This document shows, one piece after another, positions 4,320 to 27,437 of a stretch of 64,000 nt of DNA. Numbering within the stretch: position 1 is the stretch's first letter; the number at the start of each line of letters is the position of its first letter. A model generated the notes under the pieces. It was not told the origin of the DNA. It worked only from the letters and a program-made list of their open reading frames with translations, and did no database searches. The stretch is taken from positions 3,348,001 to 3,412,000 of the forward strand of contig OX597827.1 of assembly GCA_951406725.2 (NCBI GenBank), given 5' to 3'. The translations under genes and the position numbers were made by a program. This DNA comes from Octopus vulgaris (Eukaryota).

Positions 4320-5745
4320 ATTTATTGTAGCAGCTATATTTCATTTAGATTGTCTAAGTTATCTGTTAATGTTGACATTTTCAATAAGCCTGAATTTTAT
4401 AACTCTGCCTTACTTAAAGCAGGTTACACAGAAAAAGTTACTTACATTAATTCAATTCAACCTTATTCTACCTTTACTAATTGAGACATGAAATCTAATT
4501 GTAAGGATATAAACGATATCAATTTTAATTTATACGCCGGTACCAAACAGAGGAAGGGAGATAACCCTTATTTAAACCCCTTTTTTCATTCTAAAGGTAA
4601 ATCAATGTCTTTTAAAGATAGTTCCACTAAAAATAAGGCAACTAATAGTAAAACTATTTGGTTGATTATTCCTTATGGGAGGCAAATTAAATCTAATCTT
4701 CCTTTACAGTTTTGGGAACCTATTATTAGGAATTTTCCAAAGAATTCAAGGTATTACTCTATTATCAACTCGCACGCGGTTAAGATTGGTTTTTCCAACA
4801 CAAAAATATTCAAATATTAGTCTGTTAAATAAGAACACATTACTAATACTAACATTAATATAGCTAATACCATCCATCCCCCTAGAAATATTAATAACAA
4901 AGTTATTGTCTCTGAAGTCAATTCCAAAAGAATTAAGTTTATGTCAAGCAACTCTAAAATTAAAATTAAAATTAAGAAATACTATTGTAAAATTACTTCA
5001 GATACCGATGTCTTTTTTTATATCGGTAGTTCTTCTTCTCTGTTATCTAAAAGAATTTCTAATCATTACTTCTACATTTAGGGATAGGAATAAAATTAAC
5101 AGTACAGGGCTTAGTAAATTAATTTGGTATCTAAAACACCATAATAAACAATTTAATTTAGATTGGTTGATTTTCTCAATTTCATTCCCTTATGATAAAG
5201 GCAAGAAATTCTGTCTTCTCTGTAATTGTGAACTATATTTTATTCTTTTTTAATAAAAAGCCCCTTGTAAACACAGATATAGAGCATGTTTACCGATGTA
5301 AACATTGGCAGAGACACACCTTTAGTTCATATAAGAGATATCTGCCATCATATATGATTTAAACATTGATTTTCTTCTTACATTTCACATTCATTATATA
5401 TATCTTTTTCCAAGACTTTAGGGTTTTATTTAATTTGCATATCGTTCTATACTTCTCATTTATTTGACTCTTTTTTTCCTTTACTCATCCTCTTTTTATA
5501 GGCTACCTGTAACGTCATATCCTCTAACGGTTTTTTTTAAAAAACTTAACAGCATTCAGTTCATCACTTTACATATCCATTATATTCTGTTAAAATGTCT
5601 TATTGATCAGTTTTAGTTCTTCATTTCCCTGAAGAGAGGGTCACATTGTTTTACACCATTTTATTCCTTTGGAATACTACCAATGATATCTTCAAAACGT
5701 GTCAGAAGTAAAAGAATTTGAATAACACCTGCGTTTAACTCCATT
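4320..5745 (+). mobile_element. Penelope-like retroelement, 5'-truncated and frameshifted (RT C-terminus, GIY-YIG endonuclease, 3' pLTR region)
   Basis: Translated pieces: ISFRLSKLSVNVDIFNKPEFYNSALLKAGYTEKVTY; IWLIIPYGRQIKSN...IIRNFPKNSRYYSIINSHAVKIGFS; YYCKITSDTDVFFYIG...KRISNH (GIY-YIG); NSTGLSKLIWYLK...CLLCNCE...VNTDIEHVYRCKH. A hammerhead-like motif lies downstream, as is typical of PLEs. Confidence 0.8.
5622..5710 (+). ncRNA. Degenerate type I hammerhead ribozyme motif in the PLE 3' region
   Basis: catttcc CTGAAGA gaggg...tcttc aAAA c gt g TC agaagta. The G12>A and stem III changes are consistent with CpG decay of GAAACGCGTC. Confidence 0.6.
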
Positions 5746-5810
5746 TATATATATAAGAAATTAAAAAAGGAAAATACGCACACTTACATGGTTTTAATAT
5801 AATTTTTAAT

Positions 5811-5846
5811 ATATCGACCAGTTTCGCTATCGCTATTCATGATATA
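5811..5846 (-). ncRNA. Minimal type I hammerhead-like motif with an A3/U8 core variant
   Basis: Minus strand: tatatc ATGAATA gc gata gc GAAA c tg g TC gatata; perfect 6-bp stem I, 2-bp stem II and a short stem III. Confidence 0.6.
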
Positions 5847-6111
5847 ATGTTTAATTTATATGAATATATATTTTTTCTTAAGAAGGAATTTGGTCCATGT
5901 TGTTTGTGATGAAATTCACGAGTGAATTATATTCCTGAGCGCCATACTAATACAATTGTTTGTTTGTATTCCACCTGCCTTCGTCTTTTGTTTATTTTCA
6001 TAAAGCTTCCCATTATATATATATATATATAATAAAATATTAGGGAATAAATGTATTGGCTTAAGTTTTTCATTGTATGATTTGCCTAATAGTGGTTTTA
6101 TCTCTAATTTA

Positions 6112-6150
<39 letters not shown>

Positions 6151-6489
6151 CACATATATAAATCATATATTAATCAGGTACAAAATGTAGTGTTTTCTAT
6201 AATCCAGTGCATTATACAGATACCAAATAATGATATCTGTTTCATGTTGTTCATCTGGGACAAGATAGTCTGAGCCTATTTCCTTCTAATCTATATTTTT
6301 AATAGAAATTATTGAGGGATCATCTATCCCAGAGGATTTGTGAGATAGTGACAGAGATAGACATGAGAAAATGTAAGATTTAATGAGTCATGCTATGAGC
6401 CAATGAGGAGACATTAACTTAATGAAGTATCATTTGTTAATGAGGAATCATGAGATAATGAACTCATAGGGGCCTCTGGCCAATGTTGA

Positions 6490-6685
6490 ATCCTTATGTG
6501 GCTGCTTTATCTGCTAGACAGAGCAGCCACATCTCACTGAAATCACAAATCACCTTATACTACTTTCAAAGAAGAATTGACTAAGCAAATAATATGGTCT
6601 TAGATATACAATGGGATGGTCTTGGTTGGAATGCCTTTGATCACAGGTCTATCGGATCATGTCTTGATCAGAGCCTTAAACGACT
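6490..6685 (+). mobile_element. Old dispersed repeat (family E); related pieces near 3000-3180, 19060-19320 (-), 53340-53520 (-) and 60690-60780
   Basis: Shared degenerate motifs ctgctaga..agcagcca.atctc, ggatggtc.tgg.tggaatgcctttgatca; class unknown. Confidence 0.45.
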
Positions 6686-7311
6686 GTAATTTGTAATAAG
6701 ATTATCAAATTCCCACTGCAAACTGAGAAATCCCTTGTAAATTTGACAGCATTCCTGTTGTCTCCAACAAAGAGCTGAATCTATAGACAAATACTATTTG
6801 CAGTTAAACAGACAGAGCCAAGAAGATTTGTTTTTGTCATAGATACAGTGGTGACAGTGTTGGTGAGTGTTGGTGGTGGTACATAAGAAGTGGTATCTTT
6901 TGGTTTGATATGCTAATGCTAACATCTTATCAATGCAACTACCTTCCACAGACTCACTTAGTACAAATATTTAGCTAAAAGATTTACGGCACCAGTATGG
7001 AATAGCAATGTATCCAATATCGCATAAATACTGGAAAGAAATTGTTCAAAGATATTTTTCTATCTATATTTAATGATAAATATTTGTACAAGCCTCAGAG
7101 ATTCACCGATAAGGCTGCTTGGTTGGTTGCTTGGTTGGTTTTAGAAGTGAGATAGATCACTCTAGGATAGGATACATGACTGTCAATACTATGATCACTT
7201 TCTTCAGCAAAGACATAAGAGCCAACATGCATAGAAGGAGATTAATGCCAGGCTGTTATAGGTAACAAATTAGCAAAGTTGTGAGAGAAGTGGATGAAAT
7301 ACCTCTTAGTC

Positions 7312-7722
7312 TTTTTCTCTTTTACTTGTTTCAGTCATTTGACTGCAGCCATACTGGAGCACCACCTTGAAGAATTTTAGTCAAACAAATCGACCCAAGG
7401 ACTTCTTTTTAAATTTTTTTTTAAAGTCTAGTACTTATTCTATCAGCCTCTATTACAAAGCTGCTACGTTATAGGGACATAAACACACCAACACCAATTG
7501 TCAAGTGGTGATGGGTGGACAAACACAGACACACACACACACACATACTCACACACACAAACACACACAATGGGCTTCTTCCAGTTTCCGTCTACCAAAT
7601 CCACACACAAGGTTTTGGTCATCCTAAGGTTATTATAGAAGGCACTTGCCCAAGGTGCAACACAGTGGAACTGAACCCTGAATCATGTGGTTAGGAAGCA
7701 AGCTTCTTACCCCACAGCCATG
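7312..7722 (-). mobile_element. SINE family A
   Basis: Full-length similarity to 11494-11885 in reverse orientation. Confidence 0.9.
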
Positions 7723-8799
7723 CTTGCATCTTGTCATACATATTTATTTTGGTTTCTTGCATTCTGAGTTCCAATCCTGCCATGGCCTACACATATGGTC
7801 AACTTAATCCATCACCCAGTTTAACATCATTATCTGGTCTTTGGGTGTTTGTAGGAGAATATACTACATTGCAAGCAGTCAGGTCTGATCTCCTACTGGA
7901 GTATACCATTGTCTCTCTCTTCTTTCTTTCAACCAGTCTCAGAGGCCCTTTAAAAGGGTTACAGCACTGCCCTTCTCCTTTGGCTATGCAATAAAATAAA
8001 TTAACATTTGTCACCACTTAAAAGTGGTTGTTGTGTTAGAACACTGACTACTGAGGTAGTTACTACGAGAGAACCTCACATATAGTTTTTGTGGTGCATA
8101 TAGGCATTCTCATTTACATTGCCAGCGGGAGTGGTGAGAAATGATACCTTTTGGTCTAAATACTGATTCTGTTGCTATTAACAATTTCAAAATAAATCGT
8201 TTTAACTATTAAAATTTCTTCTGTAGATGCATGAAAGCCAAAACATGCCAAAGAGAATAACAAGTAATACAATCCATATTTCTAGTATTTCTATAAAGCA
8301 TGAGATTTTTTAGACAAAGTGGAAATTGGAAGTTGTGTTTATTCATGGCTTTTCTACAGACAATAATAATGTAAGTGAAGCAAAATGTTCCAAGTGGGAA
8401 TTGAAAGCACAAGCAAATTCTATATGGGTAAGTAAATCGGTATGAATGATGATAGCCTGCGCTGATAGGTTATGTTGGTAAAGTGTGATGACAGCCACAG
8501 GATTCAAAGTTGTTGACCAAAGCTGAATTAGATTCCATTACGTTATTGCTTTTATTTTTTTTTCTATCTAAGGATTATATTTTACATGTATATTTATATG
8601 CTTTATGTCCTTCTACATATTATCAGTACATTTATTCAGATAATCCTCCACAATCTGTGCATGACGATTATCTTTTTGTTTTGTTTGTTTGTTTTTGTTT
8701 TTTGCTCTGTTTTTGTTTTAAATGCTTTTTGTACATTATGAGCAGCGTTCTGCCTGACCATTATAAACATGTGTGTGTGTGTGTGTGTGTGTGATATCA

Positions 8800-9180
8800 C
8801 CATCATCATCATTTTAATGTCCACTTTTCTACGCTTGCATGGGTTGGACAGAATTTGTCGATGTGAATTTTCAATAGCTGGGTGCTCTTCCTGTAGCTAA
8901 CATTTAACTGTTTTTATGCATAGTAACATTTCCCCCAAAACTGATGCATTTTCTAAGGCAGAGTGGCAACGAAGGACACTGTTTGCATGATAGTGATGCT
9001 TACAACTATCATGTGATGTCATAGCAAGGGGACAGTAATGTGTGCACACACACACACAAACACACACATACACACACACACACACACACACATACATACG
9101 TACATACACATACATACACATATATTGGGCTTTTCAGTTTCCATCATTCGTACCCACTCCTTGGTTGGCCTGGATCTATA
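8800..9180 (-). mobile_element. SINE A core joined through a (TG)n hinge to an alternative, RTE-tailed 3' half (variant A/F)
   Basis: catcatcattttaatgtccacttttctacgcttgcatggg tail at left, (CA)n hinge, then gggcttttcagtttcc SINE A core; same layout as 59655-60005. Confidence 0.65.
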
Positions 9181-10259
9181 CTATGAAATACCACTATTTT
9201 TCCTCAAGTTTGCCTGATTTTCTATTCTAGTGTCTTGGAAATTCCAGAAGACGTGCAGTCTAAGTCATTTATCGGTGGGTATATATACAGTAGTATATAT
9301 ATATATATATATACTTTCACTGGTCTCAATCACTAGAAGGCAGCTATTCTAGGACACCATCAACGATTTTACTCAGTTATAGCAATTTAAACTATTCAGA
9401 ACACACACACACACACACAGACGCATGTTGTGTGTGTGTGTGTGTGTGTGTGTAAATATACACATTTCCTGCATGGCACTTATCAAACTCACACACATAC
9501 ATACACACATATACATTCATATATTTTGAACCAGACAGCTATGCATAAGTCTAGTGCTAAGTAAAATTAAAGAATTATTATTATTATTATTATTTATTAT
9601 TATTATTATTATTTTGCTTTTGAAATTGCAATTTTCGGAACAACTTATTTGATATTATTAATTATTTATCTCAATTTAATACAACAACTCATGTATTTGG
9701 CAAGATATAATTTTTATAAAATATATATATATATTTTTTTATATAAAATCAGTTACACATAAAACAAGATTGAGTAGAATATTTTCATCTGCAGATTAGT
9801 ACATAGCAACACAATTACTTTTAAATATTGCCATATACACTACAAGCCGAATACGGTCAATAGACAGTGTTAAAGAAGGCAGAGGACAATGAAGCAATTA
9901 TAGGCAAGTGAGATCCCTTTTCTCCCATCTTGCTGAGATCTTACCAACTTCTCTGGTGTTAGTACCATGAGAATATGGACCCAGTTCGATTTGTAGAGTG
10001 GATGAGATGTTTTTGGTTTAGCCATTTTGGCACTGCTTATCTTTCATTGCTGATTCAATGCTGACTTATTTGACATCAGATATTGAATGTCTTTCCCTTA
10101 TTTTCTGTCTCTCACAAATCTCTGATTTTTGTGTGTACGAGGAGAGGAAAAGTGTTCAACTCATAGATTGTAATGTTTTTATCTTTTTCTTTCTCTCTCT
10201 CTCTCTCTTTCTTTCTTTCTCTCTCTCACCTTCAATCTTTCTATACGTCACCACCAACA

Positions 10260-11255
10260 CCATCATCATCATCTTTTTTATCATCCATTTTTCATTGCCT
10301 AAATGGGTGAGATGGAATTTGCTGAGACAGATTTTATATGGCTGGATGCGTGTCATCCAAGCCTCACCAGTTTCCAAGTAAGGTAATGTTTCCCCATGAC
10401 CAGGAAGGTTTCCATGGAAGACTGGAAATGAAGGACACCACATGCATGTTGGTGACATGCATTTACAAATATCATACAGTCAAAGCAAGGAGGAAGTAAC
10501 ACACACACATACAGACATAAACACACACATATACATTCACATATATATACATATATATACAGGGAGAGTTTACAAAAAAAAAACAAAAGATGAAGACAGG
10601 TGGTGTACAAAATAAACAGATGTATTAGTATAACGCTCAGGAATTTAAAGAGTCTTTTACATTTCAAGCCTACGCTCTTCTACAGAAAGGGACACAGAAA
10701 AAAACACGGAAAGAAACAAGGAAAGAAAAAAAATGTGTAGTGGCTACAGATCTATCATGGCGACTGATATATGTGTGTGTGTGTGTGTGTGTTGTCATCA
10801 CCATCACCATCATTGTCATCATCATTATCATTTAGCATCTGCTTTCCTGTGAGCATGGGTTAGATGGTTTGACTGAAGCTGGAGAGCTGCACCAAGATCC
10901 AGTTTCCTTTGGCATGGTTTCTACAGCTGGATGTCCTTCCTAACACCAACCACTTCAAGAGTGTAGTGGGTGCTTTTTAAGTGCTACTGGTACGGGTGCC
11001 AGTCACATGACACCAGCGTCAGCCAGCAGCTGCAATTTCGCTTGGCTTGATGAGTTTTCTCAAGCACAGCATATCACCAGAGGTCTCAGTCACTTGTCCT
11101 CACAATGGGCTTCTATCAGTTTTCTTCTACCAAATCCATTTACAAGGCTTTGGTCAACTAGGGGCTATTGTAGAAAACACTTGCCCAAGACTCCACACGG
11201 AGCTGAACTCAGAACCATGTGGTTTGAAAGCAAACATCTAACCACTCAGCCATAT
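10260..11255 (-). mobile_element. SINE A/F variant split by two nested insertions in its hinge
   Basis: F tail 10260-10500, hinge, insert 10560-10766, RTE tail 10800-11100, SINE A head 11105-11255. Confidence 0.65.
10560..10766 (-). mobile_element. Small TA-inserted element with a decayed hammerhead-like motif (10653-10690)
   Basis: Minus strand: cttt CTGtAGA a gagc gtag gctt GAAA t g TA aaag. Its 3' end (ttcctgagcg...cacctg.cttc.tcttttgttt...) recurs at 5932-6012 on the plus strand. Confidence 0.55.
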
Positions 11256-11493
11256 CTGTGTCTGCATCTTTATCTCCATGTGTATATATTTCTGCCTATG
11301 CACATGTGTGTTTGCCTCCAGTGCCAAAATATACACTCACTAAATCAGGGTCAGTGTCTAGTTAGTCATGCCAAATTGCCAGTGTCCATACAGCCATACC
11401 CCTATCATCTTATTCCATTCTTTAGAGTGGATGGTGATAGGAAGAGAATGGAAACCAAACCAAAATAACATGAAGAGGCATCAGTCTTAAACA

Positions 11494-11885
11494 GAGTGGC
11501 TGTGTGGTAAGTAGCTTGCTAACCAACCACATGGTTCCGGGTTCAGTCCCACTGCGTGACATCTTGGGCAAGTGTCTCCTGCTATAGCCCCGGGCTGACC
11601 AATGCCTTGTGAGTGGATTTGGTAGACGGAAACCGAAAGAAGCCTGTCGTATATATGTATATATGTATGTGTGTGTGTTTGTGTGTCTGTGTTTGTCCCC
11701 CAAGCATTGCTTGACAACCGATGCTGGTGTGTTTACACGACCCGTCACTTAGCAGTTCGGCAAAAGAGACCGATAGAATAAGTACTGGGCTTACAAAGAA
11801 TAAGTCCCGGGGTCGATTTGCTCGACTAAAGGCAGTGCTCCAGCATGGCCACAGTCAAATGACTGAAAAGAGTTAAAGAGTAAAG
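11494..11885 (+). mobile_element. SINE family A, reference copy
   Basis: TGGCTGTGTGGTAAG (A box)...GGGTTCAGTCCC (B box), cttgggcaagtgtc core, (TA)/(TG) hinge, tail ...gctccagcatggccacagtcaaatgactgaaaagagttaaagagtaaag. Confidence 0.9.
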
Positions 11886-12006
11886 GGTAGAGTAGTGGGT
11901 CTTAATATGAAATGACTTCAATCATGAAGACCAGTGCAACCTATGATACAGCACAGAGGTGATCATGATGATGATGATGGCAGTTATAATATTTTATGTC
12001 ATTTAC

Positions 12007-12205
12007 AAGGCAGTGAGCTGGCAGAAGCATTAGCACACCAGACAAAATACACAGCAGTATTTCGTCTATCATTACTTTCTGAGTTCAAATTTTGCTGATG
12101 TCGACTTAGCTTTTCATCCTTTTGGGGGTTGATAAATTAAGTACCGTTTGCATAGTGGGGTCGATCTCCCCCAAAATTTTGGGCCTTGTGCCTTGAGTAG
12201 AAAAG
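12007..12205 (+). mobile_element. SINE family B
   Basis: aaggcagtgagctggcagaa head, gagttcaaat B box, tttcatcctttgggggttgataaattaagtacc domain. Confidence 0.8.
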
Positions 12206-12214
12206 AATATTTTA

Positions 12215-12605
12215 CATCTTTTACGTTTTATTTGTTTCAGCCATTAAAAAGTGGCCATGCTGGGGCACTGCCTTGGAGGGTTTTAGTTGAACAACTTGTC
12301 CCTAGTACTTATTTTTTAAAGTCTGGTGCTTATTCTATTGGTCACTTTTGCCAAAACTGCTACAATTCAGGGATGTAAACAAACCAACTCTGATAGTCAA
12401 TTGGGTAGAGAGGGGTAGACGAACATAAACACAAACACACATATATGTAAATACACACACATACACAACAGGCTTCCACACAGTTTCTGTGTACCAAATT
12501 CACTCACAAGCACTTTATCAGAAGTCACTTGCCCAAGGTGCCATGCAGTGAGACTAGACCCAAAACCATGTGATTGCAAAGTAAGCTTCTTAACCATACA
12601 GCCAC
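12215..12605 (-). mobile_element. SINE family A
   Basis: Reverse-complement similarity to 11494-11885. Confidence 0.85.
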
Positions 12606-13732
12606 ATGAAAAATATATTGAAATACAGACTAAATTTTTGATTATTCTTTTACTGGTCAAATTCAGTGGACTGCCACTATGCTAGGACACCAACGCCAAA
12701 GATATAGGCAAATATATTGGTCATTACTAGACACTACATTGGTCATTACTAGTAATATAATTTCTTTCAGATATTTCTGTTTATAATAATTGATATCATA
12801 AAATATTTCCAAATAATAGTCCTACAAGCAAGTCGCTTGCTATGCTGGTCTGGAAAAACATTCAGAGACGTGATTTGCTTCTTGCAAGACATTGCATAAA
12901 CATGACTAATGATAATTAATCAAGAAACTTTATTAATCTTCTCAAATATATAACATGAAACTTCGTTAAAGTTCAGTTCTTCGTTATTTTGCAAACATGC
13001 AAACTCGAGTCATAAAATATATAATCATGCGACTAACCCAAACTCTCAAAAATTCCAGCCTTGTGCCAAAATTTCAAACCATTAATTGCCTTAATACATT
13101 TTTTGCAATATAATTATCAGGTCAGCAAGGGTGGCATGTGTCTTAACGTGCTGAGCAGTAATTAATTTTATTGATTAATGGCCAAGTTCAAATCCTGCCA
13201 ATCAGTTTCAGCATAGTATTTTATCCCACCACTGGTCTGCAAAACATATTTACTATATTCATTTCAATAGACTACAATTGCTCTAACACACCACGTGTGT
13301 GTGTGTGTGTGTGTGTGTTTACATAATGCAAAAGAAATCTATAAAAAGTCAAGGGTCACCAACTGACAGAGGTACATGAAAACCCAGGTAACAGGTTGGG
13401 CACAGATGACAACAAGCAGCTCTTTTGCTTACCATTTAGGACATTCATGAGGAAACTGTGACCCATAGGAATGCACACCTAATTAGAAGTGCAGTCTGCC
13501 TAGCAACATGCCAGGACTCATACATCCCATTCCTTTAGAAAGATCACCCGTGACTGATGTAGGATATCTTTTTAATCTCTTATTCATTTACTTGGTCTAT
13601 GGCTATGTTAGGGTACTGATTGTAAGTCATAGTTGAATAGATATACCTATATTCTTGATGGGTAATTATTTTATTTGATTATATGATGTGCCTATGTATA
13701 CCTGATTAATGTAGATAATATGTATATAGATG

Positions 13733-14090
13733 TAGGTATGGCTGTGTAGTAAAGGGTTTACTGTCCAATTACAGAGTTTGGGGTTGAGTTCCATTGTGTA
13801 ACGCCTCGGACTAAGCCTTATGAATGGACTTGGTAGACAGAAATTGAAAGAAAACTGTTGTATATTTGTGTGTGTGTGTGTGTGTCTTTGTCCCTCAGTA
13901 CACTGCCTGACAATGGGTGTTGGTTTGTTTACATCCCTGTAACTTAGCAGTTCAGCAAAAAAAAGGACAAATAAAATAAGTAACAAGCTTAAAAGAAAGT
14001 GCTGAGGTTGATTCGTTTGACTAAAAATTCTCCAAGGTGGTGCCTCACTATGTCCGCAGTCTAATAACTGAAACAAGTAAAAGATAAAAA
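13733..14090 (+). mobile_element. SINE family A
   Basis: Head ggctgtgtagtaaag, hinge, tail aataactgaaacaagtaaaagataaaa. Confidence 0.85.
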
Positions 14091-14099
14091 ATATATATA

Positions 14100-14307
14100 A
14101 AGTAACCCCTTGCCATATCGGGGTTCATCTATCACACCACACTCAGTACATCACAGATTTTTCTGGCTAATATATGTAAATTTACATCGTGGATTTCTCA
14201 TTATATCTGGGTTTCTGCAACCAATAGGTATTTATATTTTTTTAGATTTTAATTATTTCTGTGGGAGGTTTCGGAATATAACAACCATGATAGCTGAGGG
14301 ATTACTG
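14100..14307. mobile_element. pogo/Tigger-like MITE
   Basis: Degenerate TIRs aagtaaccccttgccatatc / gatagctgagggattactg (rc CAGTAATCCCTC), flanked by TA on both sides. Confidence 0.6.
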
Positions 14308-14793
14308 TATATATATGGTCAGTAGTTCATATATCCAAAAAATAAGCACACTCTAAAGCATTAGAGCAGTAATGTATATATATATACATACATACACATC
14401 TTTATATATTAATATATTTTATATGTAAAGCATAATGTTATACATGTATGTATATTCTTGTAAGTATCAGTTTAGTAAATAAATAAATAAACAGACATAA
14501 TATAATGTCTAAAAGTTGATGAATACCACCTATTGATCCCCTCCATTTTCTTATTGCTCTCTCTCTCTCTCTCTCTCTGTATATATATATATATATATAT
14601 GATAATAATAATAAAGGTGGCTTATTTACAATCTACAACTGAAAGGTAAAACAACAGAGGTCACTAAAGTGACTAAGGGCACTAGTTAGCACCAGGACTG
14701 CTAGAAATAAGAGTCAAAACAACTCATAGGCATGATAAAGCACTTACCTCATGACTAACAAGGGAGGCAAGCTCCCTACAATATCTGGAGCAT

Positions 14794-14843
14794 AGCCAGA
14801 TCGTCAGTGATTTTGCATTTTAATTAATGCTCATCAGTGTCTC
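14794..14843 (-). ncRNA. Degenerate type I hammerhead ribozyme motif
   Basis: Minus strand: agaca CTGATGA gcatt aattaa aatgc aAAA tc actgac ga TC tggct. 5-bp stem II; G12>A and the stem III change fit CpG decay. It lies about 200 bp from the (TA)n tract at 14580. Confidence 0.55.
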
Positions 14844-15551
14844 TTACCTGGCTGCCAAGGATTAAGCCAGTTCATCTTGTCAATTTATTCTTGTTACCAT
14901 AGAAATTTCACACTGATTTCATAAATTGCTTATAGCATTCTACATCTACAATCTTTCATCTTTTACTTGTTTCAGTCATTAGACTGTGGTTATGCTGGGG
15001 CACCACCTTGAAGAAATTTTAATTGAATGAATCAAACCCACTGCACTTTTTTCTCTATTTTTTTTTAAAGTCTGTTATTTATTCCATTGGTCTTTTTTGC
15101 AAAATTGCTAAGTTAAGGGGATGTAAACACACCAACATCAGAGCAATAAACACAGACACAAAGACACACACACATATAATAACTGTATATAATATATATC
15201 ATAATGATATTTCTTCTCCAATGTGAAGCAACAATTTTTATATGTAAACAAATGACTGAAAAATGGTGAGCTAACCTCATGCAGAATCAAACTCACGAAT
15301 CAACACTTTCATAGCTCCTGGTGAATCTGATTGGCCAAACACTCACCCATCAATTTCAGTCAAATTTAGTTAATCTATACTTAAACAGTCTTGATACTAA
15401 ATAGATAATATTTATGTAAACAAACCTGAAAGGTTTTGCAAGTTACAGAGAGAAAGTTGCTATGGAAGGCTCATAGTATAACTGTATAACAACTTAGGAA
15501 GTGTCGAATGTGTTTGGTATCTTACAGACAAGAAAGTCAATTTGAAAATAA

Positions 15552-15595: not shown

Positions 15596-15763
15596 TCATC
15601 ATCATCATCATTTAACGTCCGTTTTCCATGCTAGCACAGGTTGGACGGTTTGACTGGGGTCTGGGAAGCCAGGGGCTGAACCAGGCTCCAGTCTGATCTG
15701 ACAGTGTTTCTAAAGCTGGATGCCCTTCCTAAAGCCAACCACTCCGTGAGTGTAGTGGGTGCT
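15593..15763 (-). mobile_element. RTE LINE 3' tail (fused to a 5S rRNA fragment)
   Basis: tcatcatcatttaacgtccgttttccatgctagc...gtgtagtgggtgct, matching 30985-31157. Confidence 0.9.
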
Positions 15764-15822
15764 CGATGTTGCTTAACTTCGGTGATCGGATGAGAACTGG
15801 TGTTTTCAACGTGATATGGCCG

Positions 15823-15825
<3 letters not shown>
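15761..15825 (-). pseudogene. 5S rRNA 5' fragment (about nt 3-67)
   Basis: Minus strand TTACGGCCATATCACGTTGAAAACACCAGTTCTCATCCGATCACCGAAGTTAAGCAACATCGAGC matches the 5' half of metazoan 5S rRNA including box A; there is no intermediate element or box C. Confidence 0.9.
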
Positions 15826-15864
<39 letters not shown>

Positions 15865-16350: not shown

Positions 16351-16389
<39 letters not shown>

Positions 16390-16779: not shown

Positions 16780-17240
16780 GAAAATATTTATGCTTGTTGT
16801 TAATTTTTTGTTATTGTTATTCCTGTTGTTGTAATTGCTGTTTTTGTTGCTGTTGTTGTTGTTATAGGAATTGGTTGTTGTTGTTGCTAATTATTTTCTT
16901 CAAGAAAATTGGTTTCTTAAGTCAAAGTGTTGCCAGATAATTCTGATTTATATTGAAAGATCAAAGAATTAGGCAGCAGCCAGAAGAGTTGTTGTTGTTG
17001 TTGTAGTTGTGGTGGTGGTGGTGGTTGTAATGATGATAGTGCTGCAGGTAGATGTGTTGATAGTGATAGTGGTGGTGCTGGAGAATGTGTTGATAGTGGT
17101 GGTGGTGGTGGTGGTGGTTGAACTTGCTGTAATAGCAGTAAATGGTTATCATTATCCTGGTGGTAGTGATGGTGATATTGCTAGTGTTGGAGTGGTGGTG
17201 TTAGGAGTAGTCATAATCATGGTGGTGGTGGTGTTGGGGG
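16780..17240. repeat. (GTT)n/(GGT)n low-complexity tract
   Basis: Trinucleotide repeats; explains the poly-V and poly-H ORFs. Confidence 0.85.
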
Positions 17241-17789
17241 AGAGAAATAGATTAGCAAATCACGATCGTCTCATCCCAGCAGTTAGGGACTTCAAATAGA
17301 TAATAGGAATCTTGTGATGTTAAAGAGAGAGAAAGAGTTTAGTTGCATTAGTGACCGTTGGTCAAAACATATGGTGTTAGAAATAGTGTTAGGTAACGCA
17401 GTGGTGTTGAAATAGATTGTTTAGGGATTAAGGGTAGCAGCAATGATGGGAGATTTCATGGTGGTAGAAATTTTGGACTTTAGTAATGCTAATGGAGGCT
17501 ATGAGACACATCGACACAGCTGTTTTGGTGCCACCTATATGGCATCACTGATTTGATGCTAATTTATTTGATATCAGTGGTCTTCAAGTTTTTCACATTC
17601 TCTTCCTCCCTCTTTTTCTCTCTCTCTCTCTCCTTCACTCTTTCTCTCTCACTCTTTTTCTCTCTCCCTCACTTTTTTTCTCTGCATGAGCGTATTTCTA
17701 CACACACGTGTGTGTGTGTGTGCGCGCATGCCCTTGTTGAGATATCTTGTAATCATTGTAAATGATCCTCAATTATCATACAAGTGAGT

Positions 17790-18130
17790 TTGTTAGTTTC
17801 CAGTCTTCCATGAAAAGTGTATCTGATTAAGAAATATTACTTTGGTTGGAAGCCAACGAGGGCTGGTGACAGGAAGAGCATCCAGATGTAGAAAATTTGC
17901 ATTAACAAATTCTATCTCACCCATGCAAGTATGGAAAAAGTGGTCGTTAAATGATGATGACGATGATGATGATGGTGTGTGCGTGTGTGTGTGTATTTCA
18001 TTTACCAAATTCACAAATAAGGCATTGAGTAACTTTGGGCTATAGCAGAAGACACTAACAAATGTCCCACACGGTGCGATTGAACCCAAATTCAAATAGT
18101 TGTGAAGTCAATTTCGTAACCACAGAACCA
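17790..18130. mobile_element. F-type RTE-tailed fragment (+, 17790-17975) next to a SINE A head (-, 17995-18130)
   Basis: gggctggtgacaggaagagcatccagatgtagaaaa...atggaaaaagtggtcgttaaatgatgatga; then ttcatttaccaaattcac...gaacccaaa. Confidence 0.7.
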
Positions 18131-18342
18131 AGGAAACAGTATATAATATGTCTGTCACGTTTCTCTTTTATGATAATGACATAATAGAGTGTGAAGAAAA
18201 TTTGTCTGTGATTTCTCTTCCTAAAAGTTCAAACAACTAAATAGAGAATTCCTCATTGCCTCATGGCCTATGTTTTTATTGTAATGAAACTCCATTCAGC
18301 TCTGATAAAACAGACTTATGCCACATTGGTATTTAGTATAGC

Positions 18343-18609
18343 CAGGGCTGAGGAGTCGAAACAAAAAACTTTGACTCCTCTACTATTGGCACTTCCGACT
18401 CCAACTCTGACTCCTCTTTATGTAATCAAGTGATTGTGTTCTACATATCTCATAAAGCATATGCATGTGCTTGTACTCTGAGTAGGCCTATGTGTTACAA
18501 CTGGTTTATATTAAAGAGTAAAGACATTGTGAGTCGTAATCAGTCAGTATAGTTTTACTGACTCCGACTCCAGCTTCCCCTTGTTTCCAACTACGAGTCC
18601 TCAGCCTTG
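18343..18609. mobile_element. hAT-superfamily MITE with a perfect 8-bp TSD
   Basis: TIRs CAGGGCTGAGGAGTCG / CGAGTCCTCAGCCTTG; TSD AGTATAGC at 18335-18342 and 18610-18617; subterminal GACTCC repeats. Confidence 0.9.
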
Positions 18610-18799
18610 AGTATAGCGAAGGACTATATTACATCCACTATACAAGGATTGCTTAGCTTAAAGGTACAGAGCACTCAACTGGAATTTGAGAGGTGCAGGG
18701 CTCAATTTTTAAATTCCAACAGAGAAAGGATATACTGAATAATGCAGTTATACACATATATATATATGTATATATATGTATGTATGTATGTATGTATAT

Positions 18800-19044
18800 A
18801 TCATCATCATCATTTAGCGTCCGCTAAATGATGCTAGCATGGGTTGGATGGTTCAACTGGGGTCTGTGAAGCCAGAAGGCTGCATCAGGCCCAGTCTGAT
18901 CTGGCAGTGTTTCTACGGCTGGATGCCCTTCCTAACGACAACCACTCTATGAGTGTAGTGGGTGCTTTTTACGTGCCACCCGCACAGGTGCCAGACGGAG
19001 CTGGCAAACGGCCACGGACGGATGGTGCTTTTTACGTGCCACCG
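18800..19044 (-). mobile_element. RTE LINE 3' tail
   Basis: (TA)n-catcatcatcatttagcgtccgc...tgcttttacgtgccacc twice. Confidence 0.9.
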
Positions 19045-19363
19045 TACTGCATTATTCAGTATATCCTTTCTCAAGACAGTAGTTGGTATTTAAGGGTGAC
19101 TTGGGTGTTATTTATTGGCTAAGCTCCCTTTTGGTTTCATTGTTGTTATTTAACCACAAGATCTTAATGCAAGTACTATAATTTTCATTTTGATTTTCAG
19201 CCATGGTCTGTTTAGGACTACATTATCCAACGTAGCAGTCTTTTTTTGTAATAGGTATATGATTTGAAGGAGGTTCAGCAGTTATTTCTAGCAAATCAAG
19301 CAACCATGTAGGAGCTGTGTAGAGATAATAGCAGTGTGTACATGTAGGTGTGTGTGTGTGTGT

Positions 19364-19405
<42 letters not shown>

Positions 19406-20596
19406 AGAGGAGGGCAGTTTGCACTGATAGTAAAAATGGAAAATGCATGAGCTCCATGTTGATCCATTCTCGTTCAACTAAACGATCCGTTAATTAATTG
19501 TCAGTCAATTATTCAATTATGAGATGGCTGTTACAAGTTTCCACTTCTAAAGGACAATTATTGCATTTTTGGTTCTATGATAAAAAACAGAATGGCTCTT
19601 GGAAAATTTAGTCAAGGGGATGATGTTGTTACGTAAGGCTCCTTGTGTGGGTGTGTGTGTATGTGTGTGTGAGAGTACATGTGGGTATGTACGGATATGT
19701 TTGTTTAAATGTGTGTGTAAGAATGAATCATGCAGGGAAGGCAGAGTGAAGGGTTAATGTATATAGATGAATGCATGTGTATCAATGTATCTGCATGTGG
19801 GCATGAGTGCATGTGCATGTGTGTGTGTGTAGATGTCGTTGAAAAAATAACCAGGATTGTGTTTGTTATCCTCTGTTTGTCTACATGTGTGTATGAGTGT
19901 ATACATATTCGGTTATATGTGTATGTGTGTGTGTATATGTTAAAAAAGACTATACAAGTTTAATATGCTTGTAATTGTATATATGAACATATATATATAT
20001 ATATATATATAGATGTTCATATATGAACATATATATATAGATGTTCATATATATATATATATGTTCATGTGTGTGCATGAAGGTGGGTATATGTGCATGC
20101 ATGCAAAATTATTGAAGAAGACCATGCAGGGTTAGTGTGCATGTTATTGTATATATGCATATTTATACGTGTGTGTGTGTGCAGGTGGGTGTATGTATAT
20201 GGGTGTATGTGTGTAAATATATTGAAAAAGACAATAGTATGTTATTTTATATGTATGTGTGTAATTGTGTACAATGATGTTTTTGTGTGCATGTGTACAT
20301 GTGAATTTGCATGTGGCCATATAAACATGTAGTTGTGGATAAGAGAGTGAGTCTAGATGAATAACAATGTGTGTGTGTGTGTGTGTGTGTACGTGTGTGC
20401 ATGTCTGTATTGATGTTGAATTACATGAATATATGCATCCTTTTACATCAATTCATGTGCATAAATGCATCAGTGATGTGCCGTGTGTGTGTGTGTATGT
20501 GTGGGTGCATTTGCATGTGTTTATGTGTCAATGACCATAGATGCATGAGTAAATATGAATGCATCCATTGATGGAAAGCTACATATATTCACACGT

Positions 20597-20646
<50 letters not shown>

Positions 20647-20994
20647 TTATATACAAAAACACATCTACTTGTACATAAATACACACACACACACATCATC
20701 ATCATCATTATCCTCATCTTCATCGTTTTACTGTCTGCTTTTCCATGCTTCCAAGGGTCAGATGAGATTATCTTAGGCAGATGCCTTGAGTCCAGATGCC
20801 ATTCCTGCTGCCCCCCTACTCTTGTCCCCATCTATAGTAATAATCTCTTTGCCTACCAAACAATAAACAGCCCAAATATGCTTTCAGAGTGGTCGACAAG
20901 TAAATGACAACATCAGGAAGCTATTATTTACAAGGCAACAAACAGAAAGGAAATATAAACTCACAGAACCACACACACACAGACATGCATACAC

Positions 20995-21037
<43 letters not shown>

Positions 21038-21056
21038 TGGATGGATGGATGGATGG

Positions 21057-21109
<53 letters not shown>

Positions 21110-21112
<3 letters not shown>

Positions 21113-21365
21113 CTTCTTTCAGTTTCATCTACAAATTCACTTACAAAGCTTCGGTCATCCTAGAGTTATAATAGGAGCCCTTGCACGAGGTGCCATGCAG
21201 TAGAACTGAACCCCAGACCATATGGTTGGAAGACAAACTTGCTCACTGGTATTTCGTCTGCCGCTGCGTGTTTGCTTCCCAGCCACATAGTTCTGAGTTC
21301 AGTCCTACTGCGTGACACCTTGAACAAATGTCTTCTGCTATATTCCCAAACCAAACAAAGCCTTT
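21110..21365. mobile_element. Two SINE A head fragments in head-to-head orientation (-: 21110-21240; +: 21270-21365)
   Basis: ggcttctttcagtttc...gaactgaaccc...; cttcccagccacatagttctgagttcagtcctactgcgtgacaccttgaac. Confidence 0.7.
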
Positions 21366-21475
21366 AAGTTGTAATATTTTTCTTGTTTATTTACAAAGAA
21401 TATAAGATTTATATTGTAATGTGATACATTATTTCACTTTTATACTTTTACTTTTAATTCTAGCCACTGCGGTAA

Positions 21476-22100
21476 CATCACATTTTGTGTATGACTGTGT
21501 ATCTGTCTGCGAATGTATGTGAGTGTATGAGTGTGTATATGTCTCACAATGTGTGTGTGTGTCTTTCCACATTAGGTACGTTATTAAACACACTATATGT
21601 ATGTGAAGACCGGTCAGTGTCAATACGAAATTTTGTTTTCATTTCAATTAAAACAACGTAACATTTCATAGAGACAACCTTTCTATTGTCAACAGGACAT
21701 CTTATACTACAACGACAACGACGTCACATTTTGTATGTGACTGTGTATCGTTCTGTGAGTGTATGTGTGTAGGTGCATGAGAGTGCATATGTCTTATAGT
21801 ATGTGTGTCTTCCTGCATTAGGTACATTATTAAAAACACACACGCATCTACACATATGTATGCATATGTGACGACTGACATGTGTGAATGTATGTCTGTG
21901 TGTGTCTATCTTACTATATGTAAGTGAGGGCTGGCCAGTGTCAATACATCTTTCTATTGTCAACAGGACATTTTATACCACAACAACAACATTACATTTT
22001 GTATATGACATTGTATCTGTCTGTGAGTGTATGAGAGTGTATATGTCTCATAGAGAGTGTGTCGTCTTTCTGCATTAGGTACGTTATTAAACATACACAC
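21476..22100. repeat. Diverged tandem repeat, about 2.5 units of ~245-270 bp
   Basis: acattttgt..tgac..tgtatc...cattaggtac.ttattaaa recurs from 21476, 21721 and 21989; ctttctattgtcaacaggacat occurs twice. Confidence 0.8.
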
Positions 22101-22985
22101 ACATATATATATATATCTATCTTGCAACAGTTAGCTGTGAACTTAATCTTGGTCTGCTTGGCATCCTACTTCATGTTCCTGAAATTCATATCTACAGCTT
22201 TATCGGTATATTTACCTTCTTTAGGATGTTACTCACTGATTTGAGAACTTTACATTATTGGAAAACCTATATGAAATTAGCTGAAGATTACTTGACATAT
22301 TATATCTGCTGTAATATTTGCAGCTTTAATAAATTGTTATAGTATGAAACAATTGTACTAAATTACCGGATCCATTCTTGTTGCTTATTTTTGGGTATAT
22401 ATATATATATATATATGTATAAATACCAACAAACCTGAAGACTGCACCAACAAAGCAGTTTCCTGTTTTCCAATTACTCCCACCAACCATGTGATAAGAC
22501 ATTATGCCTTAATTTTTCAAGTACTTCATTACTACATATTCTCATGTGACTACATAGGCCCACTTTATGTTTCTTATTCTACAGCCACACCAGCAATTCA
22601 ATGTCAACCCTTCGCCTTCTGTAAGTTCACCTTGCCGTTGCCGTCTCCCATTGCAGCCCATTTCTGGAATGTACCCATTTACGCACAGAATCTCCATTGC
22701 ACCTCTATTCATATGACTGCCAACCATATGATGGGTGATGTTAGATGCAGTACTGACTGCCTCAAAGGTGAGTACATCCACTGACAGCTTTTCGGTGGGT
22801 TAAAAAATCACATACCATCTCACAACCAATTTTCCCAACAGGGCCTGGAATCCTCCAAATGGATGTATTACATGTCGCTTAGTTGTATTAGACCATCATT
22901 TACCCCACAAATGTTTTGTTGTCAATACTGCACTTTATCATATCACCTGTTTCAATATAACTGTAATATATAAATATACAAACTA

Positions 22986-23192
22986 TACCTATTTCTTTAT
23001 TACCCACAGGGGGCTAAACATAGAAGGGACAAAGACAGACATAGGTATTAAGTCGATTACATCGACCCCAGTGCGTAACTGGTACTTAACTTATCGACCC
23101 CGAAAGGATGAAAGGCAAAGTCGACCTCGGCGGAATTTGAACTCACAACGTAACGACAGACAAATTAAGGCTACGCATTTCGCCCGGCATGC
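22986..23192 (-). mobile_element. SINE family B
   Basis: Reverse complement of the 184-bp unit at 39617-39800; ends ...aaagaaataggtat. Confidence 0.9.
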
Positions 23193-23457
23193 TACCTATA
23201 CCATTTTAACCCCAAGCACTGCTGGGTATCTCTGCAAGGAATTTATAAATAGTTTCTGTAATGTGTTCATGTACTTTCCTTAAGTGGGTTTATAAACACT
23301 GGTTGTTTTTGTCCTATTCTTCACTAAAGTCTGAAGATGAGGAATATAAAGCAAGCAGGAATGGTTTGGGAAGTTCTCAGATTCCAATAAATATATTTCT
23401 ATGTTTTATGCTAAATGCTCAATGCTCTCTTTTTAGATGTTCTCACAATTTCTTTGG

Positions 23458-23499
<42 letters not shown>

Positions 23500-23585
23500 A
23501 AACTATCACAAAATGTATTTCATAAAATTATTTTAGCATTTTCTACCTTGTCTTATTTTCCTTATATATATATACATACATACAT

Positions 23586-23630
<45 letters not shown>

Positions 23631-23632
23631 TA

Positions 23633-24350
23633 TAACTTAGAATAACTTAGAAAGGTTTTGGCCAGTATTGGCCCAGGCCATGTCTAACTTAATAGCACCA
23701 CCTGGCGAAGTCTTTCAATACAGGATTTGGGCACCGAGGCCCATTCGAGCAGAGAGTTATTGTTTGCGGAGACATATCCGGGTGTGGGTGGTTTGTCCGG
23801 GACTGTTTGAAGGAATTTGTCCAAAGACTTCTTGAATTTTGTGTGGTCAGTTTCTTTTTTGACATGTCCTGGTGTAATGTTGAAGAGAGTGGGTCCAATT
23901 GAGGTGAAATAGTTGTGCCGTATTGTCGTTATGTGATGCGATTTAGATTTTTGCTGTGGATGGATGGCACGTGGTCCAAGCCTTGGATGTATTTTGAAGG
24001 TGATGCCAACATCATTCAGACAGTGCTGATGGAATATTTTCCACATCATACAGATAATGTAGCGTTCACGGCATCATTGGAGTGAATACAGTTTCAACTT
24101 CTCTAGTCTACCCCAGTAGTCAAGGTCTGACATGCCATCTATCTTTTTTTGTGATTGACCATTGGGGAGCTTCAATTCTCATAATAGTTTGTTTTGTGTA
24201 GGGAGACCACAGTGGACAGCAGTATTCAAGGTGGGGTAGGGCAAAAGTGGAGAAGAGAAGGATAATAGTGTGGGAATATCTCGACTGGAAGGTTCTGAGA
24301 ATCCAGGAACACATTCTGCGGGCCATGTCAACTTTGCTGCTTATATGAGG
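23633..24350 (-). mobile_element. CR1-clade LINE 3' fragment (ORF2 C-terminus, frameshifted) with a terminal repeat
   Basis: ARRMCSWILRTF...PHLEYCCPLWSPY...IE.PQ..ITKKI.GM..LDYW.RLEKLKLYSL..RERY...FKKSLDKFLQTVPDKP; 3' end (TTCTAAGTTA)2 resembles CR1 ATTCT-type terminal repeats. Confidence 0.85.
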
Positions 24351-24373
24351 GAGGTGTATATGTATATGCATGC

Positions 24374-24423
<50 letters not shown>

Positions 24424-24805
24424 AAGCACATATGCATGTGCAAGTACATACAAAGTTCTCTCTACATAGCTTATAACTTAGCAAATTTCATTTATAATGA
24501 ATAGGTGAACCTGAGGCCATGACCAAAGACACATATCTAAAAGTTGAATTGAACCCAACTCAATGTCTTTGAGAATCGAACTTCCTAACCACAGAGCTAG
24601 GCCTGCAGTTATTGTAAATACCGAATCTATCCAGAATTCATTTTTGTCAACAAACATTTGCAATGTGTGTGCGTGTATGCATGTGTGTGTATGTACATAT
24701 GTACCATATATAGATAGATAGATAGATATAGATATGTGTGTGTAAATAAATATATATGTATATATATCCACACACGCACATAAATATAACTTATATATAA
24801 TACAG

Positions 24806-24856
<51 letters not shown>

Positions 24857-24859
<3 letters not shown>

Positions 24860-24950
24860 CCTGATGAAGCCTTCCGGCTTCACAAACCCCAGTTGAACCG
24901 TCCAACGCATGCTAGCATGGAAAACGGACGCTAAACGATGTTGATGATGA
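24857..24950 (+). mobile_element. RTE tail stub inserted between (TA)n tracts
   Basis: catgctagcatggaaaacggacgctaaacgatgttgatgatga, with TA repeats on both sides. Confidence 0.85.
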
Positions 24951-24986
24951 TATATATATATATATACATACATACATATATATACA

Positions 24987-25036
<50 letters not shown>

Positions 25037-25341
25037 TATATATACATACATATATATGCATATATATATATGCATATATATATATACACATATATATGCA
25101 TATATATATACACATATATATGCATATATATATATACATATGCATATATATATATATACATATATATACATATATATATACATATATATGCATATATATA
25201 TACATATATATGCATATATATATACATATATATACATATATATATATGCATATATATGCATATATATATATGCATATATATATATACACATATATATGCA
25301 TATATATATATATGCATATATATATATACACATATATATGC

Positions 25342-25372
<31 letters not shown>

Positions 25373-25520
25373 TATGCATATATATATATATACATATATA
25401 TGCATATATATATACACATATATATGCATATATATATATATACATATATATGCATATATATATATATACATGCATATATATACATTTATATATATATACG
25501 TGCATATATATATATATATA

Positions 25521-25556
<36 letters not shown>

Positions 25557-25600
25557 CATACATATATACATACATATATAAATACTTATATATATATACG

Positions 25601-25644
<44 letters not shown>

Positions 25645-25662
25645 CATACACATATATATATA
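24951..25662. repeat. ~700-bp (TA)n array interrupted by GC/CA dinucleotides
   Basis: tatatatgca / tatataca variants; source of six long spurious YI/HI ORFs. Confidence 0.95.
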
Positions 25663-26561
25663 TAGTTATTTTGGTCGAACCAAGCAGCAAACATCCATTG
25701 GTCGCTGCAAGTATCAAGTACAATTTGACGTCTATCAATATATTTGATGTATTTTCATTCGAAAACAAACAGCACAATTTTATATTTGAAAATAAAATGT
25801 TTACCAAAAAAGAAAGAAAAAAAAAGAAAGAAAGAAAAAAAATGAGGAAAAAAAAGAAATAAATACTATTATGAAGAATTTTCATCAAATGCTATATACC
25901 CACCCACATGCATATATCTACACAAATACATTCACACAAGTACATATATATGTATACACATTCATATAACTACATACATATACAGGCAATATACGTTCAT
26001 GCACATTACATCTGTCATCTTCTGCAGTTTGCCTCTATGCAAAAGGAAAAAAAAAATGGATTTTAATCTAATTTAGTGTACTGCAATTTCTGTAAAGCCC
26101 AAACTTCAAATACACAATGAAATGAAACAAGAATTATATGCACACACACACACACACACACACATACACACACGCACACACACATACATATATAAAACAA
26201 TATAAGAATAAAAAACATATATACAAACAAGCAAAAAACCCATCAAAACAATAAAGAAAAGGCATTATGTCTTTTGATCAATCACTCGCAGATGATTTGT
26301 GGTCTTCTGATATATCGGTGGTACACACGGATACATACATACTCACATACACATACATGCATGCATTTATGTTTGCATGTATGTGTACACACACACATAT
26401 ACGTAGATGTCCACGTATGCACACACATCTAACTTGCTATTATCTGCTTCCATGTGCTCAGAAAAGATTGGCTTCTATGTTCGGTAAAGATTCTCTCTAC
26501 TTCATGCAGTAAAGAGAGCAGATGTAAGGTTTTGGTAAACATCTTATAAAATACACACACT

Positions 26562-26599
<38 letters not shown>

Positions 26600-26675
26600 T
26601 GTTTCTATGTATGTATGTGTGAATGTGTGTGTGTTTGTGTGTATGTGTGTGTGTATATATATATATATATCTAAA

Positions 26676-26706
<31 letters not shown>

Positions 26707-27156
26707 CTAAACACAAATACACATGCACAAAAAGAGTAAATATTGAAATTTCTGTCCCCGTTACTGTAGAAAAGGAAATAGAATAAAAAATGTCAGATTA
26801 TAGGATATAGAATATTTCAAATTGTGATCATGGGGGGGGGCATTTCACAACCACAGAAGATGCCCACCTGGTTATAGATATCCAGTATGCAATAAATTTG
26901 AGAGTGAAGCAGGCTGCTTTACAACATCAATCGTAGCTAACGTATGAGTCTCTATGTGGTCCTTTGCCCTGGCAGAGATAGCACCTAACTTTGTCTCAAA
27001 GCATATTTTGCCGTCTTAAGAATGAGAGAATGGGAGGACACATAGGAGAATGTGGCTCTTGATATATTCTGTTTGAAAAAACATGGGATCTTTCACTAGC
27101 ATAACTACATGGTGTGCTGCCCAGAGTGGCTCTTCCGTTTCCACCCCTGGACCCCA

Positions 27157-27186
<30 letters not shown>

Positions 27187-27187
<1 letters not shown>

Positions 27188-27437
27188 ACTAATGTAGGAT
27201 AAAATTTTTTTAGGGGTAGGAGTAAGTATTTCACTTATATCTCACGTATTTATCGCTGAAGAAGGGAAAATTCTTATGAATTAACCCCGAAATTGTGACC
27301 AATACGGTAATAATGGATTTTTTAGAAATTTCTATTGGTTTGTTTTGAGACGCATAAATTATAATGGTTATTGACAATTTTTGTCTTTTTTCGGCATATT
27401 TGGCATTAGAATTTTTCTTTTGCCCTTATTTTGTAAA
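27187..27437 (+). mobile_element. Small (TA)n-flanked element carrying a hammerhead ribozyme (pLTR-like)
   Basis: (TA)n at 27161-27186 and 27438-27448; hammerhead motif inside. Confidence 0.6.
27250..27310 (+). ncRNA. Type I hammerhead ribozyme with an intact catalytic core
   Basis: ttatcg CTGAAGA aggg-aaaattcttatgaattaa-cccc GAAA ttg tgac caa TA cggtaa. Stem I 6 bp (one G-U), stem III 4 bp with a tetraloop, cleavage triplet AUA (after 27304); only the 10.1-11.1 pair is an A-C mismatch. Confidence 0.7.

Follow-up and report, generated by a model that had tools for sequence, protein, structure and literature searches.

Hammerhead folds with canonical and variant cores at TA-flanked ends of Penelope-like and retrozyme-like elements in Octopus vulgaris

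Published hammerhead ribozymes of Penelope-like elements (PLEs) have a type I order, a stem I of 4-6 bp, a G10.1-C11.1 pair, a palindromic stem III and an extra base after A9. They lie in the 3' pseudo-long terminal repeat (pLTR), behind the reverse transcriptase (RT) and GIY-YIG endonuclease (EN) domains, occur mostly as truncated solo copies and inverted pairs, and include the U3-A8 core of S. mansoni. Non-LTR retrozymes lack an open reading frame (ORF); their units, arranged head to tail, measure 340-470 bp, have a low GC content, contain a canonical type I hammerhead, and are found as monomers and dimers (PMC7229834; bioRxiv 2026.07.22.740005). Here we analyze five hammerhead-like motifs in a 64,000-nucleotide stretch of the Octopus vulgaris genome (assembly GCA_951406725.2, contig OX597827.1, positions 3,348,001 to 3,412,000, forward strand), which as a whole is referred to as the window. 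We consider it likely that each motif represents a type I hammerhead fold, found at the 3' end either of one of three PLE families or of one of two ORF-less elements built of tandem units, that all of them were inserted by PLE RT-endonuclease, and that the folds, including two with the variant cores A3-U8 and A6U, would cut slowly as dimers.

The five motifs named in the original prediction are all present, each in its place and on its strand, and each belongs to a separate dispersed repeat family. We named the families A (site at 27250), B (10653), C (5622), D (5811), and E (14794). Copies in each family are laid out as type I hammerheads and terminate at (TA)n, and the type I order of a three-way junction with stems I, II, and III was found in all five. 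The features of the published PLE hammerheads recur here, with the extra base after A9 in family B. The core CUGANGA/GAAA/UH is literal in the consensus of A, C, and E; in D it contains A3-U8, which keeps the pair, and in B it contains A6U. The expectation that consensus sequences would restore the canonical core was thus borne out for A, C, and E, whereas the deviations in B and D, first taken for decay, are fixed variants.

A first-look DNA search gave 2313 (A), 3358 (B), 2359 (C), 1321 (D), and 1406 (E) candidates, which are not copy numbers. Genome-wide pattern searches of the source genome (2.8 Gb, 227 contigs), in which (TA)n is abundant, returned 301 exact matches for A, 24,683 for the B superfamily, 404 for D, and 26 for E, and the reversed-pattern control returned 0 matches for each of these four. 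Every family is multi-copy, which disposes of the objection that the elements might be single-copy. A structural descriptor, composed after the motifs had been seen, detected C, D, and E in the window (three of the five) and nothing else, against a mean of 0.05 and a maximum of 1 in 20 block-wise dinucleotide shuffles, so that the motif count exceeds that of shuffled sequence; the window copies of A and B are missed because the ends of their stem II have decayed. A stricter descriptor recovered D alone in the window. The Rfam check suggested earlier came out negative, with no hammerhead among the 150 listed of 325 window matches and none on three well-preserved copies. Monomer folding energies were better than those of shuffled sequences for family A only (z of -3.4 and -3.1); seven other copies, with z between -1.2 and +0.6, had no advantage. 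The missing Rfam match, the weak monomer folding of four of the five families, and the decay changes in four window copies would suit chance matches in AT-rich repetitive DNA. We assign this explanation a negligible probability, in view of the empty pattern controls, the three descriptor hits against 0.05 in shuffles, the consensus cores and stems, and the fixed position in PLE pLTRs. The pattern counts, the covariation described below, and the descriptor results rule it out.

The PLE connection is most direct for family C, which spans 4326..5755 (+) in the window according to family comparison and domain search. Its type I hammerhead (5623..5709, +; family alignment and descriptor) has a long stem II and a predicted cut after 5703. 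The window copy has a CUGAAGA core and G12 changed to A; among 30 family copies, CUGAAGA is present in 23 and GAAA in 25. The Penelope-like ORF reported before 5622 was confirmed, in broken form: upstream of the hammerhead there is sequence of RT and of GIY-YIG, the latter with an E value of 0.026, and an ORF was found upstream in 27/30 C loci. As judged from sequence, family C is a truncated 3' pLTR end of an ORF-bearing PLE. Its endonuclease has no CCHH motif but does contain CxxC and CxH, as described for the Hydra clade, a label that we apply tentatively. Many C copies (L062-L090) do not stop at the first 3' end but extend about 200-280 bp further, to another end flanked by TA, a tail much longer than that of D or A.

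Family D is present at 5757..5927 (-) as a truncated 3' pLTR of a putative Neptune-type PLE, inserted within the TA tract that bounds the C copy on its 3' side. The minimal hammerhead at 5810..5846 (-) has the A3-U8 core pair, a 2-bp stem II, a palindromic ACCGGU stem III, and a predicted cut after 5816; the core of the window copy reads AUGAAUA. Family B, a truncated 3' pLTR of a second putative Neptune-type PLE, occupies 10562..10762 (-), with a minimal hammerhead at 10654..10689 (-) characterized by A6U, an extra A after A9, stems I and II of 4 bp each, and a palindromic ACGU. The window copy has CUGUAGA plus the extra A, and two CpG decays. The original prediction placed all motifs except that of family C in short non-coding elements. 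This holds for A and E, which appear ORF-less; the short B and D copies, however, are truncated pLTRs, since longer copies carry an RT/GIY-YIG ORF upstream (5/30 B and 10/30 D position-ordered loci). GIY-YIG was detected in D (E 1.6e-4) and B (E 8.7e-4), in both cases just below the Pfam cut-off and in decayed copies, and RT was detected in B with an E value of 0.022. The endonucleases of B and D have a CX4CxxC linker and CCHH, the Neptune/Nematis pattern; this suggests a Neptune assignment, the pattern being shared with Nematis and not diagnostic by itself.

Families B, C, and D thus have the hallmarks of endonuclease-bearing PLEs, namely RT followed by a C-terminal GIY-YIG, and a pLTR with hammerhead, tail, and inverted truncated copies. 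With the Neptune-type and Hydra clades (PMC8557442) they have in common the C-terminal GIY-YIG, the CX2-5CxxC linker plus CCHH in B and D, the missing CCHH but present CxxC and CxH in C, the (TA)n targets, the tails, and the inverted copies. Unlike those clades, C has no visible CxCX5C linker, and placement here is by motifs and not by RT phylogeny; tails measure ~55 nt in D and ~90 nt in A, compared with the 30-40 bp described.

Junctions between PLE ends of different families were observed. At 5757-6016, the D copy (-) and a hammerhead-less 3' end of a B subfamily of the CUGUUGA type (5927..6016, +; 94% identity over 105 bp; ending in (TA)n) are joined head to head at 5927 with no TA between them. 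Both 3' ends of the pair lie in (TA)n, within the TA tract of C. The arrangement resembles a PLE inversion that drew on two different RNAs; a deletion between neighbors would be the alternative. At L244:4932, the end of an A6 sibling of B continues into D ORF sequence.

The cores of B and D depart from the published PLE hammerheads: D combines A3-U8 with a 2-bp stem II that lacks the extra base, and B has U6. Neither A3-U8 nor U6 occurs in any of the 56 motifs in Fig. S3 of the 2014 supplement, among which there is no cephalopod. The exact D pattern has A3-U8 in 97 and C3-G8 in none of the 100 matches listed of 404. With a wider D-architecture pattern (1,106 matches), the 100 listed comprise 92 A3-U8, 2 U3-A8, 6 mismatched, and 0 C3-G8. 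The U3-A8 matches represent an older sister family of D, whose protein is ~50% identical to that of D and which has kept U3-A8 in 29/33 distinct copies. A3-U8 persists even in decayed copies with an endonuclease matching D at only 40-57%. Przybilski and Hammann reportedly showed in 2007 that each of the four 3-8 pairs supports activity in vitro. In 27 distinct rows of the D group, two-sided changes occur in all 6 stem I pairs and in the 3-8 pair, with a covariation of 0.212 versus 0.080 in shuffled and at most 0.053 in slid alignments. The covariation expected by the prediction was accordingly recovered for stem I and the 3-8 pair of the D group, stems II and III being fixed by the search pattern. 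The D hammerhead is also covered by contigs from runs labelled organisms A-D, which are not recorded as RNA; the 40 differences listed there, beyond which there are 68 more, include no change at position 3 or 8, an observation of little weight.

In the B superfamily, position 6 is U in 80, A in 17, and C in 3 of the 100 matches listed of 24,683. In 55 distinct U6 copies, all four bases occur at N7 and U16.1 is present in 55/55; residue 17 is A in 43, U in 9, C in 2, and G in 1, and the four pairs of stem I are intact in 54, 54, 54, and 49 copies. The U6 copies form one deep group (26/30 rows, support 86/87). An alternative register for B, in which the U is an insertion, was rejected, as A6 siblings align in the same register. 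In an EN tree of 28 rows, D and the U3-A8 family cluster together against B (100/100); in one of the rows, L253, the hammerhead may have been matched with an ORF piece unrelated to it. B and D have fixed variant cores, and A3-U8 of D is a compensating base-pair swap; the data suggest that lineages with variant cores which keep the 3-8 pair, the NUH site, and the stems have been under continued selection on the fold. An A6 sibling of B with U4C (CCGACGA) was also seen in random 10-kb stretches (L417, L457, and L464). U4C occurs in 3/5 core-bearing A6-type copies in 600 kb, all three of which begin 107 nt before the cut site, and it is possibly a third fixed core variant.

Families A and E lack the ORF and are organized differently. 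The window copy of A (27205..27441, +) is part of a 469-bp head-to-tail, retrozyme-like unit with its proximal 3' end in (TA)n. The hammerhead at 27250..27310 (+) has a canonical core (CUGAAGA in this copy, with a G10.1-to-A mismatch), a 4-bp stem II with an inner hairpin, a 5-bp stem III, and a predicted cut after 27304. An inverted piece of the distal 3' end of A (27181..27215, -) caps the 5' side of the insertion and adjoins the (TA)n tract at 27161-27187. Family E is represented by nearly one unit of an old ORF-less, retrozyme-like head-to-tail element of ~340 bp (14607..14926, -), the end of which adjoins (TA)n. Its hammerhead (14794..14842, -) has a canonical core (CUGAUGA in the window copy, with G12 changed to A), a near-palindromic 5-bp stem III, and a predicted cut after 14799. 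The unit periods are 469 bp for A and 339-343 bp for E, the head-to-tail junction recurs at several independent loci, and tandem copies with two cores were found at L140 and L145 (E) and at L234/L235 (A). Among the matches listed of the 301 for A, C3 is conserved in 100/100 and G8 in 99/100, and position 7 varies in 30/100; in E, C3-G8 is present in 19/26. At L297:850-1900, PLE ends are stacked, with an E copy flanked by a Neptune ORF fragment on one side and an A fragment on the other.

With a repeated unit and one hammerhead per unit, A and E appear to fit the non-LTR retrozymes. They differ from those described in being mostly dispersed, partial copies at (TA)n and in being known here from DNA copies; moreover, A has two fixed 3' ends and 5' inversions, the insertion signature of PLEs. 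They could instead be pLTR pieces of unsampled ORF-bearing PLEs, with tandems arising from DNA-level duplication or from insertion beside an earlier copy. A contiguous PLE ORF was found at 0/60 A loci and 1/56 E loci, the single match being a separate neighboring fragment. These loci were searched with 1.5-kb flanks and five local PLE protein pieces as queries, so that a distant PLE clade could escape, and the 2026 preprint derives retrozymes from pLTRs (bioRxiv 2026.07.22.740005). On the other hand, the same seamless head-to-tail junction occurs at independent loci, with both sides of the unit being the unit itself. In addition, shared upstream homology reaches at most 443 bp in the 30 best A loci, compared with the ORF reached in 10/30 D loci. 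We therefore regard an origin of A and E as pLTR pieces as quite improbable, and favor ORF-less retrozyme-like units inserted by PLE enzyme.

The insertion anatomy bears on this enzyme. A (TA)4+ tract comes first at the family 3' end in 24/30 (A), 19/30 (B), 20/30 (C), 28/30 (D), and 7/26 (E) loci, against 0.07-0.13 at random positions. The distance windows were set after data inspection, and C loci were the best BLAST hits, those of the other families being position-ordered pattern hits. The predicted enrichment of (TA)n flanks is therefore present and weaker in the old family E, and the central idea of several unrelated PLE-derived or PLE-mobilized hammerhead elements inserting at (TA)n is supported. 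In A, 11/30 copies end at a proximal site ~+140 from the predicted cut and 17/30 at a distal site ~+228; 14/30 carry an inverted segment at the 5' side, and 11/30 are longer than one unit (the 30 rows include two pairs from a shared locus). The window copy has its 3' end at the proximal site and carries the inverted piece of the distal end as a cap. The 3' ends of D are likewise proximal in 33/69 and distal in 35/69 copies (70 loci chosen by the sequence 3' of the cut, 1 unmapped). Two start sites, tails, and inversions match the hallmarks in PMC11167929 and PMC8557442 and form the PLE signature. Since 66/69 D copies run back through the cut site, the template would be uncut or re-ligated RNA, as for PAc in vitro. 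Mild clusters of 5' ends were seen ~100-110 nt before the cut (B 10/38, D 10/69), and a transcription start at this place would explain many of the ~200-bp copies.

In the mechanism that we propose, the PLE enzyme would nick (TA)n, and reverse transcription would begin at either of two fixed positions, UA-rich and 55-230 nt beyond the hammerhead, its start probably helped by a few bases of TA homology. The enzyme would copy uncut or re-ligated RNA, and most copies would be truncated, yielding the "mini-elements" of ~200 bp. A and E would be served in trans by this enzyme, with circular or multimeric RNA as the source. The hammerhead would act earlier, releasing or circularizing units, with cleavage predicted to take place as dimers in tandem transcripts. 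The Poseidon element PAc of Anolis (PMC11167929) similarly has two internal RT start sites, AT-rich targets, and uncut RNA that is copied. Its start site is not homologous to the target, unlike the start sites of A, D, and E, which appear to be UAU-rich templates matching the TA target by a few bases.

Whether the variant folds cut at all is the point at which our interpretation is most exposed. When two copies are co-folded, the lowest-energy state of D, A, and E is a double hammerhead whose stem III is intermolecular. Several observations weigh against the interpretation, the first being that two copies of B do not give this state. When a type III hammerhead was screened with pairwise mutants, activity was restored by the G3-C8 swap only, and every other change in the CUGA region, single or double, scored low, which speaks against activity of A3-U8 and A6U (PMC9901934). 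A natural A6C variant is slow, with cleavage at <0.1 per min (PMC3088659), and 8/9 Xenopus retrozyme dimers were uncut in vitro (bioRxiv 2026.07.22.740005). The 5' ends of D are not piled up at the cut site (2/69 within 2 nt, ~1 being expected from the local density), and 0/23 family matches in 600 kb of evenly spaced stretches begin there. Furthermore, the covariation counts refer to related sequences and not to events, with stems II and III fixed by the search pattern, and the EN tree, mostly poorly resolved, does not order the core changes. An intact full-length PLE (pLTR-ORF-pLTR) was absent from 10 stretches of 6.6-7.9 kb, no genome-wide protein search having been made, and the mobilizing enzyme of A and E is presumed to be a PLE protein.

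Part of this evidence would also fit a different account, in which the hammerheads of A, C, and E are of the ordinary PLE or retrozyme kind and the folds of B (A6U) and D (A3-U8) no longer cut, being kept for PLE protein binding or by descent. The mutant screen, the slow A6C variant, the uncut Xenopus dimers, the missing 5'-end peak of D, and the failed co-fold of B all point in this direction. So do the abundance of B, the most numerous family despite the most damaging-looking change, and the finding that PAc insertion in vitro is unchanged by hammerhead mutants, uncut RNA being the main template (PMC11167929). Two different swaps have left a Watson-Crick 3-8 pair in place, however, which one would not expect of a binding fold; nor would one expect residue 17 to accept U and C but shun G, given that A changes to G more readily. 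U3-A8 has been described as a variant in nature (PMC3088659, PMC4209133). Cleavage by the PAc hammerhead required protein (PMC11167929), and the activity of such cores may therefore be underestimated in protein-free screens. On balance, we consider non-cutting folds in B and D unlikely and prefer slow, dimeric cleavage. A more far-reaching version, which we put forward tentatively and hold to be somewhat doubtful, is that octopod PLEs fixed A3-U8 (with a U3-A8 sister) and A6U (~20,000 copies), that both cut in vivo as protein-assisted dimers, and that A is a TA-targeted retrozyme trans-mobilized by PLE machinery from circular RNA.

Three further features of the window were noted. Two diverged inverted motifs at 18330-18420 (+) and 18540-18625 (-), with CUGAGGA near GAAAC and a later GACUCC, may be hammerheads in scrambled order. 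A stretch derived from 5S rRNA (15726-15827, -; Rfam 50.4 bits, above the gathering score) lies in a repeat adjoining (TA)n. Tandem arrays of units resembling short interspersed elements occupy 39617-40011 and 29298-29682, with periods of 184 and ~100-104 bp, respectively.

PLE hammerheads, U3-A8, and retrozymes have already been published, and the novelty is the occurrence of A3-U8 and A6U cores in high-copy lineages. No description of either core was found in the literature searched, though Lünse 2017 may already list them, and octopus hammerheads of this kind were not found there either. The searched passages of an octopus repeat annotation report a PLE expansion and do not contain the word "ribozyme" (PMC13282606). 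Natural core variants described in PMC3088659 resemble those seen here in the 3-8 covariation, the change at A6, and the 2-bp stem II; named there are U3-A8 and a single phage A6C, in contrast to A3-U8 and A6U fixed in high-copy lineages here. Standard CUGANGA descriptors and Rfam overlook these families, and counts therefore fall short by tens of thousands of elements per genome. Family A would provide genomic evidence that retrozymes without an ORF insert by the PLE mechanism, a proposal that the 2026 preprint bases on phylogeny only (bioRxiv 2026.07.22.740005). The role of PLE hammerheads is puzzling, given that they cut poorly and that mutants still insert in vitro, and the variant lineages supply matched natural pairs for assays. 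If our interpretation is correct, it would widen the natural catalytic core and offer a natural series (C-G, U-A, and A-U; A6 and U6) with which to probe the purpose of the PLE hammerhead.

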